Made by a program: the position numbers and the translations under genes | Part shown: positions 61 to 36,972 of the stretch, one piece after another | Position numbering within the stretch: position 1 is the first letter of the stretch | Layout: each line of letters begins with the position of its first letter | Notes under the pieces: generated by a model | Told to the model about the DNA's origin: nothing | The model's input: the letters and a program-made list of their open reading frames with translations, nothing else | Databases searched by the model: none | Origin: Reclinomonas americana ATCC 50394 | Taxonomy: Eukaryota | Direction: 5' to 3' | Assembly: GCA_048213135.1 (NCBI GenBank) | Contig: PS015120.1 | Location: forward strand, 181,538-218,509 | Length of the DNA stretch: 36,972 bases

Positions 61-2254
61 GACGTGGTGCTGATGAAGAACGGCTACCCGATGACGCTGG
101 CCCAGGTGTTCGAGAGCCTCAACATGACGGCTTACGAGCTGAGTGTGGACACGCTGGATGTGCACGCCGACAAGTCGACCTTCCACCGCTTCGACAAGTT
201 CAACCTCAAGTACAACCCGATGGGCCAGAGTGCGCTGCGTGAGATTTTCCTGAAGACCGACAATTACATTCATGGACGGTACTTTGCCGAGCTGTGTCAA
301 GAGGTACTACGCGGCCGGTTGCTTGAACCTCTGTCGCTCTGCACTTGTGCTGACAACAACGCTGTTGTGATTGCACAGGTGTTCCAGGAGATGGAGGAGT
401 CCAAGTATCAGAACACGGAGCCCCGCATTTCCATCTACGGCAGAAATGTTGCGTCTTGGGTGTTGTTGTGCGGCGATGATGCGTGGACCACCGCTGATTT
501 CATGCACCCTCAGCGCAACGAGTGGGACCGACTGGCCGACTGGTTCAATCGTCACAAGGTGTACTCGAACAATGTGCGTTGGTTGGTGCAAATCCCGCGC
601 CTGTACAGCGTGCACAAGCGTTCGGGCGGCGTGTACAATTTCCAGGAGTTTTTGGATAGCTGCGTACTGCTGGCAGTCGACGGGCGCACACCTTTGGGGA
701 AGAAGTGACCGCTGACGTTGTGTGTGTATCTCTCTCGTGGGAACAGATATTTTTGTTCCCCTGTTCGAGGTCACGTGCGATCCGACGAGCCACCCGCACC
801 TCAACAACTTTTTGCAGCAGTTGGTCGGCTTCGACAGTGTCGATGACGAGTCGAAGGCGGAGAAGAAGTTCCACCACAGGTGAGAGAGTCGGTCCGTTGA
901 TACATCCCATCTCCCTGCGATTGCTGACGTGTATACGACGCAGCAATCCGCACCCCGAAGACTACACGAGCGACGACAATCCATCCTACGTCTACTACAC
1001 GTACTATTTCTATGCAAACATGTTGCGTCGTGGGCATGAGCTCCCTGACCTCTTTGCTGTTGCTCACACATTGCATTGCAGCTTTGCACTGAATAAGCTG
1101 CGCAAGCAGCGCGGTCTCAGTTGCGTTGTGGATTGAACGACGCTGCGTGTCTTCTCTTCCGCGCCACTCACCGTGACCCTTGTTGCCCCACAGACACCTT
1201 CAGTTTCCGACCGCACTCTGGCGAGGCCGGTGACGATGATCATCTCATGGTCACCTTTTTGTTGGCCGACGGCATCAACCACGGCATCACGCTGCGCAAG
1301 AACCCCGTCATGCAGTACCTGTACTACCTGACGCAAATCGGCATCGCCATGTCGCCGCTGTCGAACAACTCGCTCTTCCTCAGCTACGACCGCAATCCAT
1401 TCCCGCTCTTCTTCAAGCGCGGACTCAATGTGTCGCTCTCCACGGATGATACGTATCTCTCTCTTCGTTTCTCGCATGCTCATGAGAGAACGCAGTGTGG
1501 ATCTCATCAGCAAGTTGTGTTTTTCTGCGTGTTCACATCCCCTGATGTTCCACTTCACCAAGGAGCCGCTGATGGAGGAGTTCAGCATCGCCGCGCNNNN
1601 NNNNNNNNNNNNNNNNNNNNNNNNNNNNNNNNNNNNNNNNNNNNNNNNNNNNNNNNNNNNNNNNNNNNNNNNNNNNNNNNNNNNNNNNNNNNNNNNNNNN
1701 NNNNNNNNNNNNNNNNNNNNNNNNNNNNNNNNNNNNNNNNNNNNNNNNNNNNNNNNNNNNNNNNNNNNNNNNNNNNNNNNNNNNNNNNNNNNNNNNNNNN
1801 NNNAGGTGTACCACTTGAGCACGTGCGATTTGTGCGAGATTGCCAGAAACAGCGTGTACCAGTCTGGGTGGGAGCACAGCGTCAAGTCGTACTGGTTGGG
1901 CAGTCGGTACAAGCTGCCGGGTCCGCTCGGAAATCGTGAGTGGGGGGTAGCGAAGAGAAGGGGAATGCTTTTGAGTCAGCGTTGCTCACTCGTCCCTTGC
2001 AGAGATCGAGCGCACCAACGTGTCACAGCTGCGCGTCGCCTACCGCTACGCCACTCTGTGCCAGGAGCACCGCTTCGTGCTGAAGTTGCGCCGCGTGACT
2101 TTCTCCTTCACTTCCAAGAAGCGTCGCTAAACCGCGTGTTTCCCTTCTCCTCTCGTGCAGATGTTTGGCCATTGGCAACGAGCAAAAGGCAGCGGCGGCC
2201 GCTGCAGCTGCTGCCGCGTCTGCTTCGCGGGCGTTGCGTTCACCAGGCAAGTAG
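61..2254 (+). CDS. AMPD: AMP deaminase, C-terminal catalytic domain (5'-partial, about 10 introns, one gap)
   Basis: Spliced translation gives family motifs: [142 protein letters not shown]. Introns at 304-378, 448-513, 659-746, 880-943, 1022-1081, 1120-1193, 1449-1536, 1936-2002, 2085-2160. Stop TAG at 2252-2254. Confidence 0.97.
1449..1536 (+). other. AT-AC intron (88 nt) in AMP deaminase
   Basis: ACG GAT G|ATACGT...GTGTTCAC|AT CCC CTG restores the conserved STDDPL motif. Confidence 0.8.
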
Positions 2255-6562: not shown

Positions 6563-8781
6563 TTAGCGGGCTGGCGGCGGTGGCGGCGGAGGTGGTGGTG
6601 GTAGAGGTGTTACTGTCGTCGCGGTGCCCGCTGGAGGAGAGCGGTTGGCCGGCGGTGGTGGCGGTGGCGGCGGCGGAGGTCCACGAGTGCGCAAGAGTTG
6701 AGCAGCTCGTGCAAGTTCTAGCTGTTGAGGAGAGGCGGGCTTGCCAGACGGCGATGATGGTGAGTCCGGGGCTGCGATGAGGCACAGGGCGATGTCATTG
6801 CGAAGACGGCGAGAATGTCTGCAAAAGCGCGCCGCACACGCACCACGATCGTGCACGATAACACTGCTCATGCTCCTCGGCTTTGGCGGCGGTGCTGCAG
6901 GCAGAGAGCAAGGCAATGAGTGGAATGCACGAGGAGCAGAACATGGTGGCGTGCACGCGAACCAGGCGTATTTCCAGCATGTGGTGAACCAGCTGCAAAA
7001 ATGCACAAGTGAGATGGAGAGCAAGGAGGAGGATGAGGACGACGAGTTACCGGAGGCAGGCGAGCGAGACGACGGCGATGCTGTGAGCGATAAATGACTG
7101 GTGAGCAAGCTCACTGTGTGGCACAGCTTGAGAGGAGGTGGTCGAACCTGCCGAGGGAGAGCCGCCGAAACTGCGTTGCATGAAAGGCACACGTGAGCAC
7201 ACACGCTGGCAAATGCACAAATAAGTTGATGCTTGCTTGTCACTCACCGGCTGTCATGAACCAAGGTGGACGGCGTTTCTGCAGAAGGCGGTGTGCGTGC
7301 ATGAGGATAGGTGATGAGAGGAACCGCGAGACGTGGCTCGGTAGCTCACCAGCTGCGTCTTCCAGTTCGTCTACGGTGCCTAATCGGCGAACACCGAGCT
7401 TGCCCTTGCGGTCGGGAAGAGGGGGCGGTGCACCGCGGGATCCAGAACTCGGTCCTGCTGCGATAGCAAAAGTGAGTGAGGCACTGTCTTCCGACGGAGG
7501 AAAAGAATGCACGGGCGAGTGGCACACCAGCAGCGACAGCAGCGGCCGTGGCGGCGGCAGCCGAGGCCGCGCCCACTTTGCTGGACGAGCCACCTGTGTC
7601 ATGAAGTCGCAGTCGGTGATCTGACCACACCCAAACAACGATATGCAGTAAGAAACGCACCACCGGCGGCAGCCGAGGCAGTCGGTCTCGTGGGATCGCG
7701 GCTGAGTACGCGCTCCACACAATCGGCGAGGGGCGCCATGTCTTTCTTGCCGATGATGTTGTGCTCGTGCACAAAGAAGACAAAGTGCTCGAACGCGTGA
7801 TGGAGCACCGAGGAGGCTTTTGGACCGCGTTTCTGAGCAAGTAACGAGGTGAGTGCTGCGCGATCTGCAAGGCGGTGCAGCAGCCCACCACGTGAACTGC
7901 ATCTCGTCGTTACCCAGTTCCCAACACGTGCCCCATTTCACGAACTGCAGAACGCCCCACCCGCACCCGCAATAAACACCCTCACTCCTGCCACCTCCTC
8001 ACCTTCATCGTCGGTAGATGATGATGGTAGATGTGAGCAAACACGCGGAACAGCCTCCGATACACCTTGTGCATCAACTCGGAGAAATGCGGTGGATACC
8101 GCGCACCCGGCTCCACGGGAAACACCTCCGTGTCATTCATCAACGCATCGATCCACTCCAGCAGCAGCGACACGTACTGATGCGCCGGCACCGAGATTGG
8201 TTGTCCATTCGCCGGCACCAGCGGAGGCTCTCCCCACAAGTACTCAAACCTGCGCATGTTGCATAAGAGGACACGCTGCATGCAGAACAAGAAGCTGCGT
8301 ATGTGTGTCAGGTGAGCAACCTGGGTCCGGCAGTCATCTTTGGGCACGAATCCCGCGTGCAGTCGGCTTGCACGTTCCCAAAGAGCAAATTGGCGGCATC
8401 ATAGAACTCAATGACATTGGCGGCGATCCAGTCGTTGAGCGCGGCACTTTGCGGAGTGCGCACGAGACTCTACACACACACACGCACATGTGCATTAGAG
8501 AGTGGAAGAGCAAGTTACAAAACCGTCATGATGCGCGCGCTCGCACCTCCAGTGACTCATCGTCATCAGTGACGGAGTTGAGTGAGGCCGTGCGGATGTG
8601 CTCTTGCAGAGTGTAGCGAGAGGTGGCACGACGAGCGGCCATTGCTGACTCACTCAGTGAGGAGCGACGATGCGGACGATCATTGTCACTGTGTGCATGA
8701 GTGAGTGAGTGTGAGTGTGTGTGTGTGTTAGTGTGAGGAGCGCAACAGTCCGCCGTCTGTAGTCAACACTGCGCTGTTCAT
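6563..8781 (-). CDS. MOB kinase activator (Mob1/phocein family) with long Pro-rich C-terminal extension
   Basis: Spliced core reads LNDWIAANVIEFYDAANLLFG..CTRDSCPKMTAGPRFEYLW..VPAHQYVSLLLEWID..FP..FSELMHKVYRRLFRVFAHIYHHH..FEHFVFFVHEHNIIGKKDMAPL. Further same-strand exons end in PPPPPPPPPAR* at 6563; the tail's exon structure is approximate. Confidence 0.9.
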
Positions 8782-14278: not shown

Positions 14279-14568
14279 ATGACGCGCCGACCATCGCTCC
14301 TCCTCCTCCTCTCCCTCCTCTTCTGCCTCTCCCTCTCCACACTGCTCGTGCACATCACCGCCGCTGCTCGCCCCTGTGACCTCCCTCCGCTCTCCACCAC
14401 CGCCGTGTGTGACCCCTCGAAGCCCATCAATGATCGCGTGAGTGCACTCATCGCGCAGCTGCTCACGGCGGAGAAGGCCGGTCTGTTTGTCAATGGAGCT
14501 GCCGGCATTCCGCGTCTCAACATCCCCGCCTATCAGTGGTGGAGCGAGGCGCTGCATGGTGTCGCAGA
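14279..14568 (+). CDS. GH3 beta-xylosidase/arabinofuranosidase, exon 1 with signal peptide
   Basis: MTRRPSLLLLLSLLFCLSLSTLLVHITAA signal peptide, then VCDPS..RVSALIAQL..GIPRLNIPAYQWWSEALHGVA. Donor GA|GTTGAGG at 14569. Confidence 0.95.
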
Positions 14569-15228
14569 GTTGAGGAGAGGGGAATGCATGCATGAGGGAT
14601 GATCAATTTCTCCGAACTCTCTCTTTCTCGTGTCTTCCTTCTTCCCTCTCTCAATGCGCCCGTTGTCACATGTCATCCTTCGTTGCTCTCTCTTGCCTCT
14701 CTCTCTCTCTCTCTCTCTGCCTCTCTATTTGCTTCGTGCNNNNNNNNNNNNNNNNNNNNNNNNNNNNNNNNNNNNNNNNNNNNNNNNNNNNNNNNNNNNN
14801 NNNNNNNNNNNNNNNNNNNNNNNNNNNNNNNNNNNNNNNNNNNNNNNNNNNNNNNNNNNNNNNNNNNNNNNNNNNNNNNNNNNNNNNNNNNNNNNNNNNN
14901 NNNNNNNNNNNNNNNNNNNNNNNNNNNNNNNNNNNNNNNNNNNNNNNNNNNNNNNNNNNNNNNNNNNNNNNNNNNNNNNNNNNNNNNNNNNNNNNNNNNN
15001 NNNNNNNNNNNNNNNNNNNNNNNNNNNNNNNNNNNNNNNNNNNNNNNNNNNNNNNNNNNNNNNNNNNNNNNNNNNNNNNNNNNNNNNNNNNNNNNNNNNN
15101 NNNNNNNNNNNNNNNNNNNNNNNNNNNNNNNNNNNNNNNNNNNNNNNNNNNNNNNNNNNNNNNNNNNNNNNNNNNNNNNNNNNNNNNNNNNNNGACGAAG
15201 AGAGTGCGTGCGTGACAAGGAAACACAC

Positions 15229-16343: not shown

Positions 16344-17389
16344 CTGAAAGGGGGGAGGAGGGGGGATGGAGGGTGAGGAGAAGAGAGAGACAAAGGAGAA
16401 GGGTGGCATGACAGCACCGGCAACTCTTACACGAAGCAAACAGAGAGAGAGAGAGAGAGAGAGTGGAGGCAGTNNNNNNNNNNNNNNNNNNNNNNNNNNN
16501 NNNNNNNNNNNNNNNNNNNNNNNNNNNNNNNNNNNNNNNNNNNNNNNNNNNNNNNNNNNNNNNNNNNNNNNNNNNNNNNNNNNNNNNNNNNNNNNNNNNN
16601 NNNNNNNNNNNNNNNNNNNNNNNNNNNNNNNNNNNNNNNNNNNNNNNNNNNNNNNNNNNNNNNNNNNNNNNNNNNNNNNNNNNNNNNNNNNNNNNNNNNN
16701 NNNNNNNNNNNNNNNNNNNNNNNNNNNNNNNNNNNNNNNNNNNNNNNNNNNNNNNNNNNNNNNNNNNNNNNNNNNNNNNNNNNNNNNNNNNNNNNNNNNN
16801 NNNNNNNNNNNNNNNNNNNNNNNNNNNNNNNNNNNNNNNNNNNNNNNNNNNNNNNNNNNNNNNNNNNNNNNNNNNNNNNNNNNNNNNNNNNNNNNNNNNN
16901 NNNNNNNNNNNNNNNNNNNNNNNNNNNNNNNNNNNNNNNNNNNNNNNNNNNNNNNNNNNNNNNNNNNNNNNNNNNNNNNNNNNNNNNNNNNNNNNNNNNN
17001 NNNNNNNNNNNNNNNNNNNNNNNNNNNNNNNNNNNNNNNNNNNNNNNNNNNNNNNNNNNNNNNNNNNNNNNNNNNNNNNNNNNNNNNNNNNNNNNNNNNN
17101 NNNNNNNNNNNNNNNNNNNNNNNNNNNNNNNNNNNNNNNNNNNNNNNNNNNNNNNNNNNNNNNNNNNNNNNNNNNNNNNNNNNNNNNNNNNNNNNNNNNN
17201 NNNNNNNNNNNNNNNNNNNNNNNNNNNNNNNNNNNNNNNNNNNNNNNNNNNNNNNNNNNNNNNNNNNNNNNNNNNNNNNNNNNNNNNNNNNNNNNNNNNN
17301 NNNNNNNNNNNNNNNNNNNNNNNNNNNNNNNNNNNNNNNNNNNNNNNNNNNNNNNNNNNNNNNNNNNNNNNNNNNNNCTCTTTCGCCAG

Positions 17390-19037
17390 CCTCGGCATGT
17401 TCGACCCCGTGCCCACACAACCGTACCTCAAGTACAACACCACCGTCATCGACACCAAGGCACACCGTGCCCTCGCCCTGGATGCAGCACGCGAGGGTAT
17501 CGTGCTGCTGAGGAATGATGCCGGCACGCTGCCGCTGTCGACTCGCATTATTCAAAGCGTGGCCGTGATCGGACCGAATGGCGATGCCACCACTGTTGCG
17601 TTGGCTCAGAGCTTGTTCATCGTGATGTTGGCTGGTGTGCTCATCGTGTGCGTGCAGACAATGCAAGGCAATTACGAAGGTGTCGCGCCGTTCCTCGTGT
17701 CTCCTTTTGCCGGTATCAGTGCGTACGCCCCACGCTCCACGTTCACCCGCGGCTGCAAGATCAGCGGCTCCGACAAGGGTGGCTTTTCGAGCGCACAGAC
17801 CGCAGCGTCGGTGGCCGATGCCACCGTCATTGTTGTTGGCCTCGATCAGTCGCAGGAGTCGGAAGGCAACGGTTTGTGAGACGAAGATCCTGATTCCGCA
17901 AAAGTTTTCCATAATTCTCAGTCACCTCCCCTGCTTTCACACAGACCGTGAGTCGATCGACCTTCCTGGTGGTGAGTGGCCTCGCAGAATGTTGCTTCAG
18001 CACGGTACTAGGTGATCACTATGCTCTTCTTCCCTCGTGCAGTGCAAAATGACCTGATCACCGCCGTCGCGTCGTCGTCTCGCGGACCTGTCATTGTGGT
18101 GGTGATGGCCGGCGGTTCTGTGGATCTCACCGTCGCCAAGACCTCCAGCAAGGTGTCGGCGATTCTGTGGGTTGGCTATCCCGGACAGGTGTGTGTGTGT
18201 GCGGGAATGGGAAAGCGAGTGACTCTGCGGCTGGTGACCTAATGATTGCGGTGTGGTGTGCAGAGTGGTGGCACTGCTCTGGCTGACATTTTGTTTGGCA
18301 CGGTGCGTCGACGTGTTTTGATGCAGTTCTTTTCTTGCCCTCACCATCCCCCTGCGCAGGTCAATCCCTCCGGCAGGATGCCGTACACCATGTACCCGGC
18401 CGCGTACACCTCGCAAGTATCCATGTTGGATGTTGCGTTAGATGTCATTATCTCAGTCTCCTTCCCTCTCCTCACGCTGTTGCCACCCTCCCTGCAGATG
18501 AACATGCGTCCAGGTACGAACAATCCCGGCCGCACGTACCGCTTCTACACTGGCGCGCCAGTGTACGCGTTCGGCTTTGGCCTCTCCTACACCACCTTTA
18601 CGTACACGAGCGCGGCGGCACGACGAGGTGGCCTGCAGGTGTCCTACGAGACGGTGGCGGACTACGCGCGCAAAGCGCACGACCGCGGCCACTACCTGCC
18701 GCCGCTGCCGTCCAGTCCAGAGTTTTCGCCCGTCGGCACCGTCTCCGTGACGGTGACCAACACTGGCAAGGTGGCCGGCGCTGTCTCGGTCCTCGGTTTC
18801 TTGGTTCCTCCAAGCCCAGGTGTCAACGGTGCTCCGCTGAAGTCGCTGATCGGCTTCGGCAAGGTGTTCCTGCAGCCGGGCCAGTCGCAGTCGTACTCCT
18901 TCGGCATCCAGGCACACGATCTCACCATTGTCGACTCGACTGGCGAGCGCGCCGCCGTGCAAGGCGAGTGGACCTTTGTCGTAAACCCGTCAGACGAGGG
19001 CTCTGAGACGAGCCGGACGCCGATCCTGGTCCACTGA
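17390..19037 (+). CDS. GH3 beta-xylosidase C-terminal domain and Fn3-like domain
   Basis: LGMFDP..AAREGIVLLRN..VAVIGPN..VVGLDQSQESEGNDRESIDLPG..ILWVGYPGQSGG..NPSGRMP..PGRTYRFYTG..FGFGLSYTTF..VTVTNTG..LIGFGKVFLQPG. Stop TGA ends at 19037. Confidence 0.96.
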
Positions 19038-31532: not shown

Positions 31533-32545
31533 GTCGTCATCGTCCTCCATGCCTCCACTTCCGCAGCTGCCTCCGCTGGTGTCAATGCCGCCTCCTCCAC
31601 CACCTCCTCCACCTCCGACTGCGCGAGGAGGACGAGCGACTGCAGCAGCAGCAGCACCGCGACGACGCGGAGGCAACAATCGCTTGCCTGAGCGTGCGCT
31701 GGACCTGCTGAAGCGACACGTGAAGCGCATGCGGCAGCTGCAGTGGACCAAGTGTGGCCATGCCGACCCTGTGCCAGTGCCCAGCACGCAGGACAAGCGT
31801 GTGCTGGCCGCGCAAGCTGGCATGCAACTGACGCAGGTGTCGAGTTGGTGAGTGCCTGCCTGTGGATTTAGTTGTGTCTCTGTGCATGCGCTCAGCTGTG
31901 GGCAGGTTCATCAACGCGCGCTATCGGTGCACCAAGGACCCGGGTCTCGTGCAGAGCTTGTTTGGGTCGCCGATGGGTGTGCCGGGTCATGAGAAGCTCG
32001 ACCCGGAGATGCCGATGCACTTGGGCGTGAGCGAGTCGACAGTCTCCGAGCCGCAGCAGCCAGCACTAGCACCCCAGGCACCACCACCACCACCGCCGCC
32101 ACCTCCAGCATCAGCGTCACCAGCAGTGCCTGTGATGCATCCGCTGCTGTCGCAGCCGACGAGCATGCTGTTTACGCCAGTTTCGTCGTCGGTCCCTTCG
32201 CCTGTGCAGCACCATTCGCCACCGAGACCTGTGGTGGTCGGTGTGCTGCCGCCTGCGTTGCCGGTGGGTATGCTGGCCAACTATCAAGTCGTGGAACAAT
32301 GGTACGCGCGCTTGCCGCGGTGGCAAAGTCGTGCCATTTTTGCTGACGTTTTTTTACCATGCAGGTTCCTAGCACACATCGATCGCCCGTACGCCACACC
32401 GCGTGAACGGCAAGAGCTAAAGGAACGATCAGGGCTCTCTCGTCGCGACATTCAACGGTACCTCCGATCACGACGAGACGCGCACTGGAAGTCACTCGGC
32501 GACCCGTGCTACCTCAGTGGCGACTCGGACGATGGTGGCGACTGA
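31533..32545 (+). CDS. TALE-like homeobox transcription factor with a second degenerate homeodomain (copy 1, 5'-partial)
   Basis: RLPERALDLLK...PVPSTQDKRVLAAQAGMQLTQVSSW|FINARYR with an intron inside the Trp codon. Second unit: VVEQW|FLAHIDRPYATPRERQELKERSGLSRRDIQRYLRSRR. Confidence 0.85.
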
Positions 32546-32759
32546 ATCGCTGCGCTTTGTTTACTGTGTTTTACAATCCTCTTCTTTCTTTCTCTATCTG
32601 TTTCGTTTCCTGCCTCTGCACGAATTGGCGGCGTTGAATGGGTTCGTAGTCGTTGTGTGGTCGGTGTGGGAAGAGCGTCGCAAGTGAATTCATGAACGTC
32701 CTTGTGTCATGCAAGTCATTTGTCAGTGATCACAGTGTGTGAGTGTGGAGCGAGAGCAA

Positions 32760-33242
32760 ATGGACGGAGGAGGAGGCAGTGGATCAGCAGCACCGTCTGC
32801 AGCGAGTGTGGCATCGTTGACGTCAGCGGCCACTGTCAAGTATGTGTGTGGAGGTGCGCGAAAAAAGTCGAGTGAGAGAAGGATGCAGATGCGCGCGCCA
32901 CATCCCTCCCAGTGGTTGTGTGTGTGTACGAGAGAGAGAGAGAGAGAGAGAGAGCGCGCATTCCAGTCTGGCATTGACGCGCAATCAATCACATTTGTGA
33001 GTCGAGTTTCTCACTCACTCTCTCTCTTTCCGCACTTCTTGTAGACTGCAAGGAGAAGTCCTCCATCAAGTTCGGCGATCCCATCAAGTGCCACAACTGC
33101 GGGCATCGCATTCTCTACAAGACGCGCACCAAGGAAAGTTGCGTGACTCACTCTCTTTTGGCATCTCTTGTTGCTTCTTCTCTCTCTCTTTCTCAGCGTT
33201 CTCTTTGCCACACGCACAGGGATTCAGTACGTTGCGCGCTGA
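32760..33242 (+). CDS. RPB12: RNA polymerases I/II/III shared subunit RPABC4 (copy 1)
   Basis: Removing introns 32854-33044 and 33138-33219 gives VKYVCGDCKEKSSIKFGDPIKCHNCGHRILYKTRTKERIQYVAR*, the RPB12 zinc ribbon. Not present in the ORF track. Confidence 0.96.
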
Positions 33243-33356
33243 GCTGCGTGTCCGTGCGTGAGTCGTCGCTTCCAATGTAGATGGTGTGAATGTGCAAGAC
33301 AGTTTGGGAGATACTTTACTACACACGGTGCGTATTACAACTACTGTTCAAGTGGA

Positions 33357-34227
33357 TTACACGGGCCTGCTGTTGCTGTCACGTGGTCGCATGGGTGATT
33401 GGGTGCGTGAGGAGCTGCTGCCGTTGACGGTGAGGGAGGAGCCCGATGATACGCGCACTACGCCTGGCGCACTTCCAGCGCGTGGTGGTGATTGGTGGTG
33501 CTGGGCTGCAGCAGCTGCAGCGGCGGCGGCGGCGGCCTCGGCCACAAAGGAGACCGGCGGAAGCATGGGTGGGGCACGTGGCGCCGGCGAGGGGTGTCGT
33601 GGTGGTGAAGACGAGGATGGCGCAGCAGCAGCTGTTGCTGTTGTAGCAGCGGCAGCCGCCACAACCGCGGGAGGAAGCGGCACAGCCAGTGGGATGGATG
33701 CCGGCGGCGGCAACGGCATGGGTGGCGCCACGTATCGACGCACCTCGGCAGCCAGTGGCGCGTGTGGCGGTGGCGGCGACAGCCGATAGCTGGCGGCCGT
33801 CACCAGTGCCGCCGCTGCGGCTGGCGACGATCGCATCGCCACGCTGACATTCATCTCGCCGTCTTTCGGCACCAGCGTGTACTCCCACTCTGTGACGACT
33901 GGCAGCAACGGCGCTGCGGCATCGGCAGCGGCCGCAGCACTGGGGCCGGCTGCTGCTGCTGCTGCCGCTGGGGGTGGTGGTGGCGGTGGCGAAAACTCGA
34001 ACTCGCGCAGCAAGTTGGCCGACACGAACTTGACCATGACCAGCTGCACACAAAAAATGAGTGAGGCCGCCAGCACCACACAGGAGAAGAAAAAAGATAG
34101 CGCACCCCAATCGTCCTCCAAAACCCCATGGCATCACCAACTCCAAATGTCCAGTAGGCCGGGAAGCGCGTGTTACACCGACACTCGAGTGCCGACAGCG
34201 GTCTCCACGGCTGCGTCATTGACTGCA
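33357..34227 (-). CDS. Cytochrome P450-like C-terminus lacking the heme cysteine, followed by a Pro/Ala tail (copy 1, 5'-partial)
   Basis: Spliced: FPAYWTFGVGDAMGFWRTIG|LVMVKFVSANLLREFEFS...EYTLVPKDGEMNVSVAMR. This matches the FGxG heme loop, L helix, LLxxFEF and TLxPK strand pattern of P450s. Confidence 0.55.
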
Positions 34228-34247: not shown

Positions 34248-35271
34248 ATCATCATCATCGGCATCGTCTTCCATGCCTCCGCTTCCGCAGCTGCCTCCTC
34301 TGGTGTCCATGCCGCCTCCTCCACCGCCTCCTCCACCTCCGACTGCGCGAGGAGGACGAGCGACTGCAGCAGCAGCAGCAGCACCGCGACGACGCGGAGG
34401 CAACAATCGCTTGCCTGAGCGTGCACTGGACCTGCTGAAGCGACACGTGAAGCGCATGCGGCAGCTGCAGTGGACCAAGTGTGGCCATGCCGACCCTGTG
34501 CCAGTGCCCAGCACGCAGGACAAGCGTGTGCTGGCCGCGCAGGCTGGCATGCAACTGACGCAGGTGTCGAGTTGGTGAGTGCCTGCCTGTGGATTTAGTT
34601 GTGTCTCTGTACATGCGCTCAGCTGTGGGCAGGTTCATCAACGCGCGCTATCGGTGCACCAAGGACCCGGGTCTCGTGCAGAGCTTGTTTGGGTCGCCGA
34701 TGGGTGTGCCGGGTCATGAGAAGCTCGACCCAGAGATGCCGATGCACTTGGGCGTGAGTGAATCGACAGTCTCCGAGCCGCAGCAGCCAGCACTAGCACC
34801 CCAGGCACCACCACCACCGCCACCACCTCCAGCATCAGCGTCACCAGCAGCAGTGCCCGTGATGCATCCGCTGTTGTCGCAGCCGACGAGCATGCTGTTT
34901 ACGCCAGTGTCGTCGTCGGTCCCATCACCTGTGCAGCACCATTCGCCACCGAGACCTGTGGTGGTCGGTGTGCTGCCGCCTGCGTTGCCAGTGGGTATGC
35001 TGGCCAACTACCAAGTCGTGGAACAATGGTACGCGCGCTTGCCCCGGTGGCATAGTCGTGCCATTTTTACTGACGTTTTTTACCATGCAGGTTCCTGGCA
35101 CACATCGATCGCCCGTACGCCACACCGCGTGAACGGCAAGAGCTAAAGGAACGATCAGGGCTCTCTCGTCGCGACATTCAACGGTACCTCCGATCACGAC
35201 GAGACGCGCACTGGAAGTCACTCGGCGACCCGTGCTACCTCAGTGGCGACTCGGACGATGGTGGCGACTGA
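34248..35271 (+). CDS. TALE-like double-homeodomain protein (copy 2)
   Basis: Near-identical to 31533-32545, with the same introns and stop. Confidence 0.85.
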
Positions 35272-35490
35272 ATCGCTGCGCTTTGTTTACTGTGTTTTAC
35301 AATCCTCTTCTTTCTTTCTCTATCTGTTTCGTTTCCTGCCTCTGCACGAATTGGCGGCGTTGAATGGGTTCGTAGTCGTTGTGTGGTCGGTGTGGAAAGA
35401 GCGTCGCAAGTGAATTCATGAACGTCCTTGTGTCATGCAAGTCATTTGTCAGTGATCAAAGTGTGAGTGTGTGTGTGGAGCAGAGAGCAA

Positions 35491-35646
35491 ATGGACGGAG
35501 GAGGAGGCAGTGGATCAGCAGCACCGTCTGCAGCGAGTGTGGCATCGTTGACGTCAGCGGCCACTGTCAAGTATGTGTGTGGAGGTGCGCGAAAAAAGTC
35601 GAGTGAGAGAAGGATGCAGATGCGCGCGCCACATCCCTCCCAGTGG

Positions 35647-35689
<43 letters not shown>

Positions 35690-35981
35690 AGAGAGAGAGT
35701 ACATTCCAGTCTGGCATTGACGCGCAATCAATCACATTTGTGAGTCGAGTTTCTCACTCACTCACTCACTCACTCTTTCCGCACTTCTTGTAGACTGCAA
35801 GGAGAAGTCCTCCATCAAGTTCGGCGATCCCATCAAGTGCCACAACTGCGGGCATCGCATTCTCTACAAGACGCGCACCAAGGAGAGTTGCGTGACTCAC
35901 TCTCTTTTGGCATCTCCTCTCTCTCTCTTTCTCAGCGTTCTCTTTGTCACACGCACAGGGATTCAGTACGTTGCGCGCTGA
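35491..35981 (+). CDS. RPB12: RNA polymerase subunit RPABC4 (copy 2)
   Basis: Same exon structure and protein as copy 1; synonymous GAA/GAG difference just before intron 2. Confidence 0.96.
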
Positions 35982-36095
35982 GCTGCGTGTCCGTGCGTGA
36001 GTCGTCGCTTCCAATGTAGATGGTGTGAATGTGCAAGACAGTTTGGGTGATACTTTACTACACACGGTGCGTATTACAACTACTGTTCCAGTGGA

Positions 36096-36972
36096 TTACA
36101 CGGGCCTGCTGCTGCTGTCACGTGGTCGCATGGGCGATTGGGTGCGTGAGGAGCTGCTGCCGTTGACGGTGAGGGAGGAACCCGACGATACGCGCACTAC
36201 GCCTGGCGCACTGCCAGCGCGTGGTGGTGATTGGTGGTGCTGGGCTGCAGCAGCAGCAGCGGCGGCGGCGGCGGCCTCGGCCACAAAGGAGACCGGTGGA
36301 AGCATGGGTGGGGCACGTGGCGCCGGCGAGGGGTGTCGTGGTGGTGAAGACGAGGATGGCGCAGCAGCAGCTGTTGCTGTTGTAGCAGCGGCAGCCACCA
36401 CAACCGCGGGAGGAAGCGGCACAGCCAGTGGGATGGATGCCGGCGGCGGCAACGGCATGGGTGGCGCCACGTATCGACGCACCTCGGCAGCCAGTGGCGC
36501 ATGTGGCGGTGGCGGCGACAGCCGGTAGCTGGCGGCCGTCACCAGTGCCGCCGCTGCGGCTGGCGACGATCGCATCGCCACGCTGACATTCATCTCGCCG
36601 TCTTTCGGCACCAGCGTGTACTCCCACTCTGTGACGACTGGCGGCAACGGCGCTGCGGCATCGGCAGCGGCCGCAGCGCTGGGGCCGGCTGCTGCTGCTG
36701 CTGCCACTGGGGGTGGGGGTGGTGGCGGTGGCGAAAACTCGAACTCGCGCAGCAAGTTGGCCGACACGAACTTGACCATGACCAGCTGCACACAAAAAAT
36801 GAGTGAGGCCGCCACCAGCACCACACAGAAGAAGAAAAAAGATAGCGCACCCCAATCGTCCTCCAAAAGCCCATGGCATCACCAACTCCAAATGTCCAGT
36901 AGGCCGGGAAGCGCGTATTACACCGACACTCGAGTGCCGACAGCGGTCTCCACGGCTGCGTCATTGACTGCA
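36096..36972 (-). CDS. Cys-less P450-like C-terminus (copy 2, 5'-partial)
   Basis: Near-identical to 33357-34227, with the same FGVGDAMGFW motif. Confidence 0.55.

Follow-up and report, generated by a model that had tools for sequence, protein, structure and literature searches.

The window analysed here, a stretch of 36,972 nucleotides (nt) of contig PS015120.1 of Reclinomonas americana ATCC 50394, opens with the 3' part of an intron-rich AMP deaminase (AMPD) gene (61-2130, forward strand), in which an 88-nt segment beginning with AT and ending with AC (1449-1536, forward strand) interrupts the codons of the catalytic motif. Judged by its database matches, the host gene is a clear member of the AMP deaminase family. 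The exons 61-303 and 1196-1450 match Pfam PF19326 (AMP_deaminase) with E-values of 8.5e-38 and 1.2e-46, the latter over profile positions 451-535, and the host-gene scores of 159.8 and 130.6 bits compare with a gathering cut-off of 27. The exon 1196-1450 furthermore aligns with residues 515-599 of the Arabidopsis enzyme (PDB 2a3l; E 1.4e-38) and with human AMPD2 (8hu6/8hub; E 2e-33). Profile positions 534-554, matched by the final 21 residues of reading 1332-1595, adjoin those covered by exon 1196-1450. The upstream exon starts at 1194, with its in-frame part at 1196-1450, and in the AT-AC register it comprises 1196-1448 (forward strand) and ends with G1448, where the second Asp codon of the motif begins. 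In the downstream exon (1537-1596, forward strand), the initial AT completes this Asp codon and is followed by nineteen residues (1539-1595), after which the exon runs into a run of N. All AMPD exons are open, with 64 % identity to the best homologue over nine exons, and the splice sites of the seven other introns are intact; the gene thus looks functional. The run of 207 N (1597-1803) interrupts the gene where homologues have just one residue (SIAA-x-VYHL) and, for this reason, probably hides a further intron.

The 88 nt between the two coding stretches are not divisible by three, and the catalytic motif SLSTDDP is complete only once they are removed, whereupon the encoded protein is ordinary when set beside other AMP deaminases (PF19326; 2a3l, 8hu6/8hub). 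The junction reads TCC ACG GAT G/ATACGTATCTCTCTC...CTCATCAGCAAGTTGTGTTTTTCTGCGTGTTCAC/AT CCC CTG ATG TTC CAC, which would place the intron in phase 1 within the second Asp codon of SLSTDD/PLMFH. An initial annotation of the window had proposed that no other removal restores STDDPLMFH, and enumeration bore this out. With the anchors fixed, all excisions of 30 nt or more that start within 1425-1519 and finish by position 1574 were generated, the in-frame, stop-free cases were kept (n = 2300), and their products were scored against 67 distinct homologue segments. The 88-nt excision ranks at the top (mean score 129.0; STDDPLMFH restored), tied across three registers that remove the same 88 nt, namely 1449-1536 (AT-AC), 1450-1537 (TA-CA) and 1451-1538 (AC-AT), while the next-best excision, in fourth place, has a mean score of 122.0. 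The ambiguity among these registers is inherent, and even complementary DNA could not separate them. As the initial annotation had stated, AT-AC is the sole recognised terminus pair among the three, and by our own arithmetic the odds of finding it in one of the three registers of an arbitrary excision are approximately 3/256. The GT-AG excision 1453-1510, which had likewise been recognised as being in frame at the cost of ten residues inserted between DD and P, is the best GT-AG option, at rank 224 (mean score 109.0). The initial annotation had overlooked a further GT-AG excision in frame, 1453-1495, which inserts fifteen residues and ranks 498th (mean score 104.0). On the strength of this fit, together with the relatives and the composition described below, the AT-AC junction probably lies at 1448/1537.

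Conservation among relatives at the junction of DD and P was assessed in a sample of 120 proteins of 150-2000 amino acids, ninety-nine of which match the motif pattern, in 230 domain copies. Exactly one residue separates S[ST]D from P in 227/230 copies. The three exceptions to the pattern comprise P0007, with a fourteen-residue insert after DDPL, and a single site in P0045 which was counted twice and is contiguous, lacking only the His. The twenty-one proteins outside the motif pattern were left out of the count, with a looser search showing STDDP in two of them. Similarly, STDD is directly followed by P in all 80 metagenome loci with an AMPD alignment (identity of at most 78 %, none being a close relative), and the gap at this site is 0 nt in all 78 loci that match both flanking exons. 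Among 120 short fragments (46-149 amino acids), 110 are contiguous by pattern and two more by eye (P0258 and P0332), five diverge one to three residues past the P (P0249, P0257, P0261, P0272 and P0349), two end with the P or directly behind it (P0286 and P0302), and P0321 ends with STDE followed by a stop. An ending of this last kind would fit a GT intron inside the same Asp codon, which P0321 may therefore carry. The stopping and diverging fragments resemble exons whose reading has continued into an intron. Introns thus appear to occur near this site in other eukaryotes, which suggests that intron positions cluster around the STDD(P) motif in several lineages. Extra residues between DD and P were found in none of the domain copies, metagenome loci or short fragments. 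No transcript of the same species occurs among the collected proteins, where the highest identities are 81 % (150-2000 amino acids) and 78 % (46-149 amino acids). The closest named relatives of both the AMPD gene and a GH3 gene further along the window are protosteloid Amoebozoa (Soliformovum, Cavostelium, Protostelium and Phalansterium), with identities of 45 % for GH3 and 64-81 % for AMPD, while Phytophthora, Prasinococcus, diplonemids and choanoflagellates score close behind, which makes an affinity to Amoebozoa tentative. In P0007, the AMP deaminase of Planoprotostelium fungivorum, the fourteen extra residues (VSAHRTWNTDCKLE) after STDDPL have Val first and Glu last. This insert would fit an in-frame GT...AG intron of 42 nt left unspliced, possibly through an error of annotation, two codons from the focal site.

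The disputed 3' third of the segment was also assessed by composition, using log-odds of exon versus intron 3' zone trained on twenty exon pieces and sixteen introns of the AMPD and GH3 genes. The 28 nt which would become coding if GT(1453)-AG(1510) were used (1511-1538) score -7.9 bits, a value below that of all 872 exon windows matched in length and phase (mean +4.4, standard deviation 3.7, minimum -7.6), and intron 3' ends average -3.7 bits on the same scale. The proportion of G or C at third codon positions (GC3) is 4/10 in 1511-1538, compared to 835/1052 (79 %) in exons, and T makes up 46 % of its bases versus 20.5 % in exons. The stretch looks like an intron pyrimidine tract.

Twenty-two introns were mapped in three genes of the window: eight in AMPD, eleven in GH3 and three in Mob1. 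Within AMPD, the junctions of 304-378, 448-513 and 659-746 were placed by automatic enumeration, those of 880-943, 1022-1081, 1120-1193 and 1936-2002 by reading, and the focal intron by the fixed-anchor enumeration described above. The Mob1 introns were placed by eye, the third being less certain. The terminus pairs include twenty GT-AG, one GC-AG (659-746) and one AT-AC, and the 3' ends of the twenty-one introns other than the focal one are CAG in twenty cases and TAG in one (Mob1 8470-8546). Local introns are 57-170 nt long, and a CT[CGA]A[CTG] word occurs 14-33 nt from the 3' end in 17/19 of the other introns scored, with CTCAT itself present in three GH3 introns. GTTGCG is the commonest donor (six introns), alongside GTG and GTT variants. 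Apart from its first and last bases, the focal intron is like the local GT-AG introns in its branch motif, spacing, pyrimidine tract and CA-N 3' end. Its 5' splice site ATACGT (1449-1454, forward strand), with GGATG on the exon side, matches the local donors moderately, sharing GT at positions +5 and +6 with GTGCGT and GTGAGT, which together with GTACTA are its nearest local counterparts. The initial annotation had pointed to a branch-like CTCAT and a T-rich tract ahead of the terminal AC, and both are in place. The proposed branch site (1503-1507, forward strand) sets A1506 at 30 nt from the 3' end, inside the local range, and is followed by a T-rich, A-free pyrimidine tract (1515-1533, forward strand; 75 % pyrimidine with twelve T when taken over 1515-1534), with no AG from 1515 to 1560. 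The 3' splice site CAC (1534-1536, forward strand) corresponds to the local CAG (TAG in a single Mob1 intron) but has C instead of the final G.

Several further observations concern splice sites and the 88-nt sequence within this window. The GC-AG intron of AMPD (659-746, forward strand; GCTGCG...AACAG) is also 88 nt long and its removal yields FLDNIFVPLFE, matching homologues, while the GT at 664 would require a non-AG acceptor. With this intron and the focal AT-AC intron, two of the eight mapped AMPD introns are not GT-AG. The GTTGCG donors are found at 448, 1022, 1120, 15402 (reverse strand), 17595 and 18432 (6/22 introns), with GCTGCG and GTTGCT occurring besides. GTTGCG matches the usual 5' end of U1 poorly, and the U1 or the 5' splice site recognition of this organism may be unusual, given these donors. 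When an origin from a transposon or introner was considered, no second copy of the 88 nt was found within the window, where the only similarities were CT-repeat words.

AT-AC termini are not exclusive to introns of the U12 type, a class which is defined by its 5' site and branch box, according to the accessible text of PMC3584512, and in human splice sites AT-AC accounts for approximately 0.09 %, as given in the available part of PMC4176328. The initial description of the focal intron as devoid of U12 signals holds. The donor ATACGTAT is mismatched at 4/8 positions to the U12 consensus ATATCCTT, and the best word resembling the TCCTTAAC branch box within the intron has three mismatches and lies at -33. 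No adenosine occurs from -23 to -3 of the intron, the normal zone of the U12 branch point, and TTTGA, the Physarum branch variant, is not found within two mismatches nearer to the 3' end than -35. Across the whole window RTATCCTY is absent (0.77 expected), TCCTTRAY occurs once (1.86 expected) and outside the AMPD gene, and Rfam and transfer RNA scans of the 37-kb sequence returned no matches. The only hint of a U12 past is GTATCTCT (1453-1460, forward strand), a U12-like word that starts 4 nt inside the intron; it also holds the GT donor of the two GT-AG excisions and can be compared with [G/A]TATC[C/T]TTT as quoted for Physarum in the accessible portion of bioRxiv 10.1101/2020.10.12.336362. 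Orthologues were checked for a U12 intron at this codon, and all 80 metagenome loci (identity of at most 78 %) are intronless there. The suggestion that this is a converted U12 intron consequently found no support, remaining a guess because none of the 80 loci has an intron at the site. These loci nevertheless say little on the ancestry of the intron since most are intron-poor or resemble messenger RNA, with a gap of more than 40 nt between neighbouring exons elsewhere in just 23/80, and a few seem to share other intron junctions with this AMPD gene. A literature search on AMP deaminase with U12-type introns returned, as far as the retrieved text extends, just an unrelated splicing study in Plasmodium.

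Taken together, 1449-1536 is most likely an AT-AC spliceosomal intron that is removed by the major (U2-dependent) spliceosome, a reading to which a probability of roughly 0.6 is assigned. We infer both the splicing at this junction and the type of spliceosome from the sequence. Within the initial interpretation, the part that stands is thus the AT-AC intron without U12 features, which homology, relatives and composition make much the best reading, while the derivation of its donor from a local GTACGT and the conversion from a U12 intron found no support. Under the major-spliceosome reading, the 5' site G/AUACGU would be used like a local G/GUNNGU donor and the branch would form at A1506 in the CUCAU box. 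Two AGs located 3 and 7 nt past the branch would be too close for use and the next 46 nt are devoid of AG, so that the second step would take the CAC after the pyrimidine tract. The first and last intron bases usually form a non-Watson-Crick G...G pair, which would here be replaced by A (+1) and C (last position); the pairing principle is said to go back to Parker and Siliciano (1993) and reportedly also to Wu and Krainer (1997), the latter being cited in PMC3584512. The focal intron is in this sense one case of a rare, already known kind: the class of U2-type AT-AC introns has been known since 1997, and one predicted case is added to it. It shares with that class the AT-AC ends, the lack of a U12 5' site and branch box, and an otherwise ordinary type of 5' site, branch motif and tract, and differs in that its class is predicted from sequence alone, its host is a protist rather than a vertebrate, and it splits a catalytic motif. 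With U12-type AT-AC introns it has in common the termini and a phase other than 0, but it is without the /ATATCCTT 5' site and the TCCTTRAY box near the 3' end and has a T-rich tract, which is not typical of U12-type introns.

A number of observations weigh against this assignment. The donor is no close copy of the local consensus, as A at +3 occurs in 1/21 of the other donors and GTACGT, from which the initial annotation had derived it by a G to A change, in 0/21. The two in-frame GT-AG excisions have a plausible branch site in a first CTCAT (1479-1483, forward strand), ahead of the AGs at 1494-1495 and 1509-1510, and good local acceptors in CGCAG (ending at 1495) and TCAG (ending at 1510). 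The ends of the intron can pair over 8 base pairs at -12.7 kcal/mol, a value matched by 125/5000 shuffles, which would also suit a mechanism assisted by structure. The window itself is draft sequence, a scaffold containing twelve runs of N and one probably inverted contig. Furthermore, Physarum, Protostelium and Acanthamoeba keep a minor spliceosome, that of Physarum with altered motifs, according to the accessible part of bioRxiv 10.1101/2020.10.12.336362, and the closest named relatives of the genes studied here are Amoebozoa, so that a divergent U12 route is conceivable.

The most serious competitor is an ordinary GT-AG intron, of either 58 nt (1453-1510) or 43 nt (1453-1495), in an enzyme with a lineage-specific insert of ten or fifteen residues between DD and P. 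Both versions keep the frame without a stop, GTATCT could serve as donor and the first CTCAT as branch site, the acceptors are like local ones, and 58 nt falls inside the local length range. Their low ranks in the homologue fit, the uniform absence of a DD-P insertion among the relatives examined, and the composition of the 28 nt that would become coding, which score below every exon window, nevertheless render this explanation unlikely, and no local intron is as short as the 43-nt version. In addition, the insert would directly follow the two Asp residues, which are presumably the catalytic, metal-binding residues of the adenosine/AMP deaminase family. Somewhat less probable still is a U12-dependent AT-AC intron with decayed signals, or with an altered recognition by U11, U12 or U6atac comparable to the Physarum branch box. 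The termini, the phase of 1 rather than 0, the U12-like GTATCTCT and the tentative affinity to Amoebozoa, some of which keep or transform the minor system (bioRxiv 10.1101/2020.10.12.336362, in its accessible part), would suit such an intron. Its 5' site and branch box are, however, as poorly matched as described above, the zone of the branch point is without A or a TTTGA box, the window offers no RTATCCTY and its lone TCCTTRAY lies outside the gene, and no U12 orthologue was seen among the 80 loci. Moreover, cleavage guided by the displaced box would fall at 1452/1453, where it is unable to restore the motif. A variant of this idea, equally doubtful, is that, in a poorly sampled lineage akin to the Amoebozoa, a relic U12-type AT-AC intron had its recognition box shifted inward by 4 nt (ATACGT, then ATCTCTC, with GTATCTCT from +5) and would now be handled by the major or an altered minor spliceosome.

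Structure rather than splice signals would define the intron if it were of the nonconventional euglenozoan style, with the AT-AC register coincidental. In the minimum free energy fold AUACGUA (1449-1455) pairs with UGCGUGU (1526-1532), the exon flanks GGAUG and CAUCC extend the helix, and the strength of this end duplex is seldom reached by shuffled sequences. Euglenids and hemistasiid diplonemids have nonconventional introns with such pairable ends and non-GT-AG borders (PMC12621601, PMC3935182 and PMC4770533, as far as their accessible text shows). The pairing is unexceptional locally, however, as two of sixteen local GT-AG or GC-AG introns pair better (-17.3 kcal/mol) or nearly as well (-10.8 kcal/mol), and the z-scores of the whole-intron fold are -0.21 and +0.23. 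The remainder of the gene has ordinary introns, 20/22 mapped introns are plain GT-AG with branch motifs, unlike those of hemistasiids, and the focal termini happen to be a spliceosomal pair. The canonical donors of diplonemids are GTATG in the available part of PMC12621601, against GTTGCG here, and the closest named relatives are Amoebozoa. This explanation is hence very improbable. The same applies to an artefact or a dead gene, in which base-call or assembly errors affect both intron ends or an unspliceable insertion sits in a pseudogene. While the runs of N, the contig orientation and a near-identical tandem block across a 20-N gap attest to the draft state of the scaffold, an artefact would take two particular base changes falling precisely on the first and the last base of the intron, and the open exons, their identity to the best homologue and the seven intact introns speak against a pseudogene.

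If the AT-AC intron is spliced as proposed, it would provide a protist example for a very small class of AT-AC introns without minor-spliceosome signals. A gene finder restricted to GT-AG introns would introduce a frameshift into this AMPD or add ten to fifteen spurious residues to its catalytic motif. The intron also raises questions on the lineage, including how frequent such introns are, whether a minor spliceosome is present, and whether AT-AC ends survive the conversion from minor to major splicing. Were the doubtful relic-U12 explanation true, it would represent a minor-to-major conversion caught in the act with its AT-AC ends kept, or a second 'transformed' minor system after that of Physarum.

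Beyond the AMPD gene, the window contains 3814 N in its twelve runs. The GH3 beta-glucosidase/xylosidase gene lies in three pieces, at 14369-14566 (forward strand), 16336-15228 (reverse strand) and 17391-18998 (forward strand). As the middle piece sits between the runs of N at 14740-15193 and 16474-17377, its contig is probably inverted in the scaffold. The third piece includes a 27-nt micro-exon encoding DRESIDLPG (17945-17971, forward strand) between the GT-AG introns 17872-17944 and 17972-18042. Towards the end of the window there is a tandem repeat of approximately 2.73 kb (31534-34227 and 34258-36972), with blocks that are 86-100 % identical and a 20-N gap between the copies, which reflects either a genuine duplication or a pair of haplotypes that the assembly set one behind the other. 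Each copy contains an open reading frame for the RPABC4 zinc ribbon, and a piece of a TALE homeobox is found in the first copy and probably also in the second.

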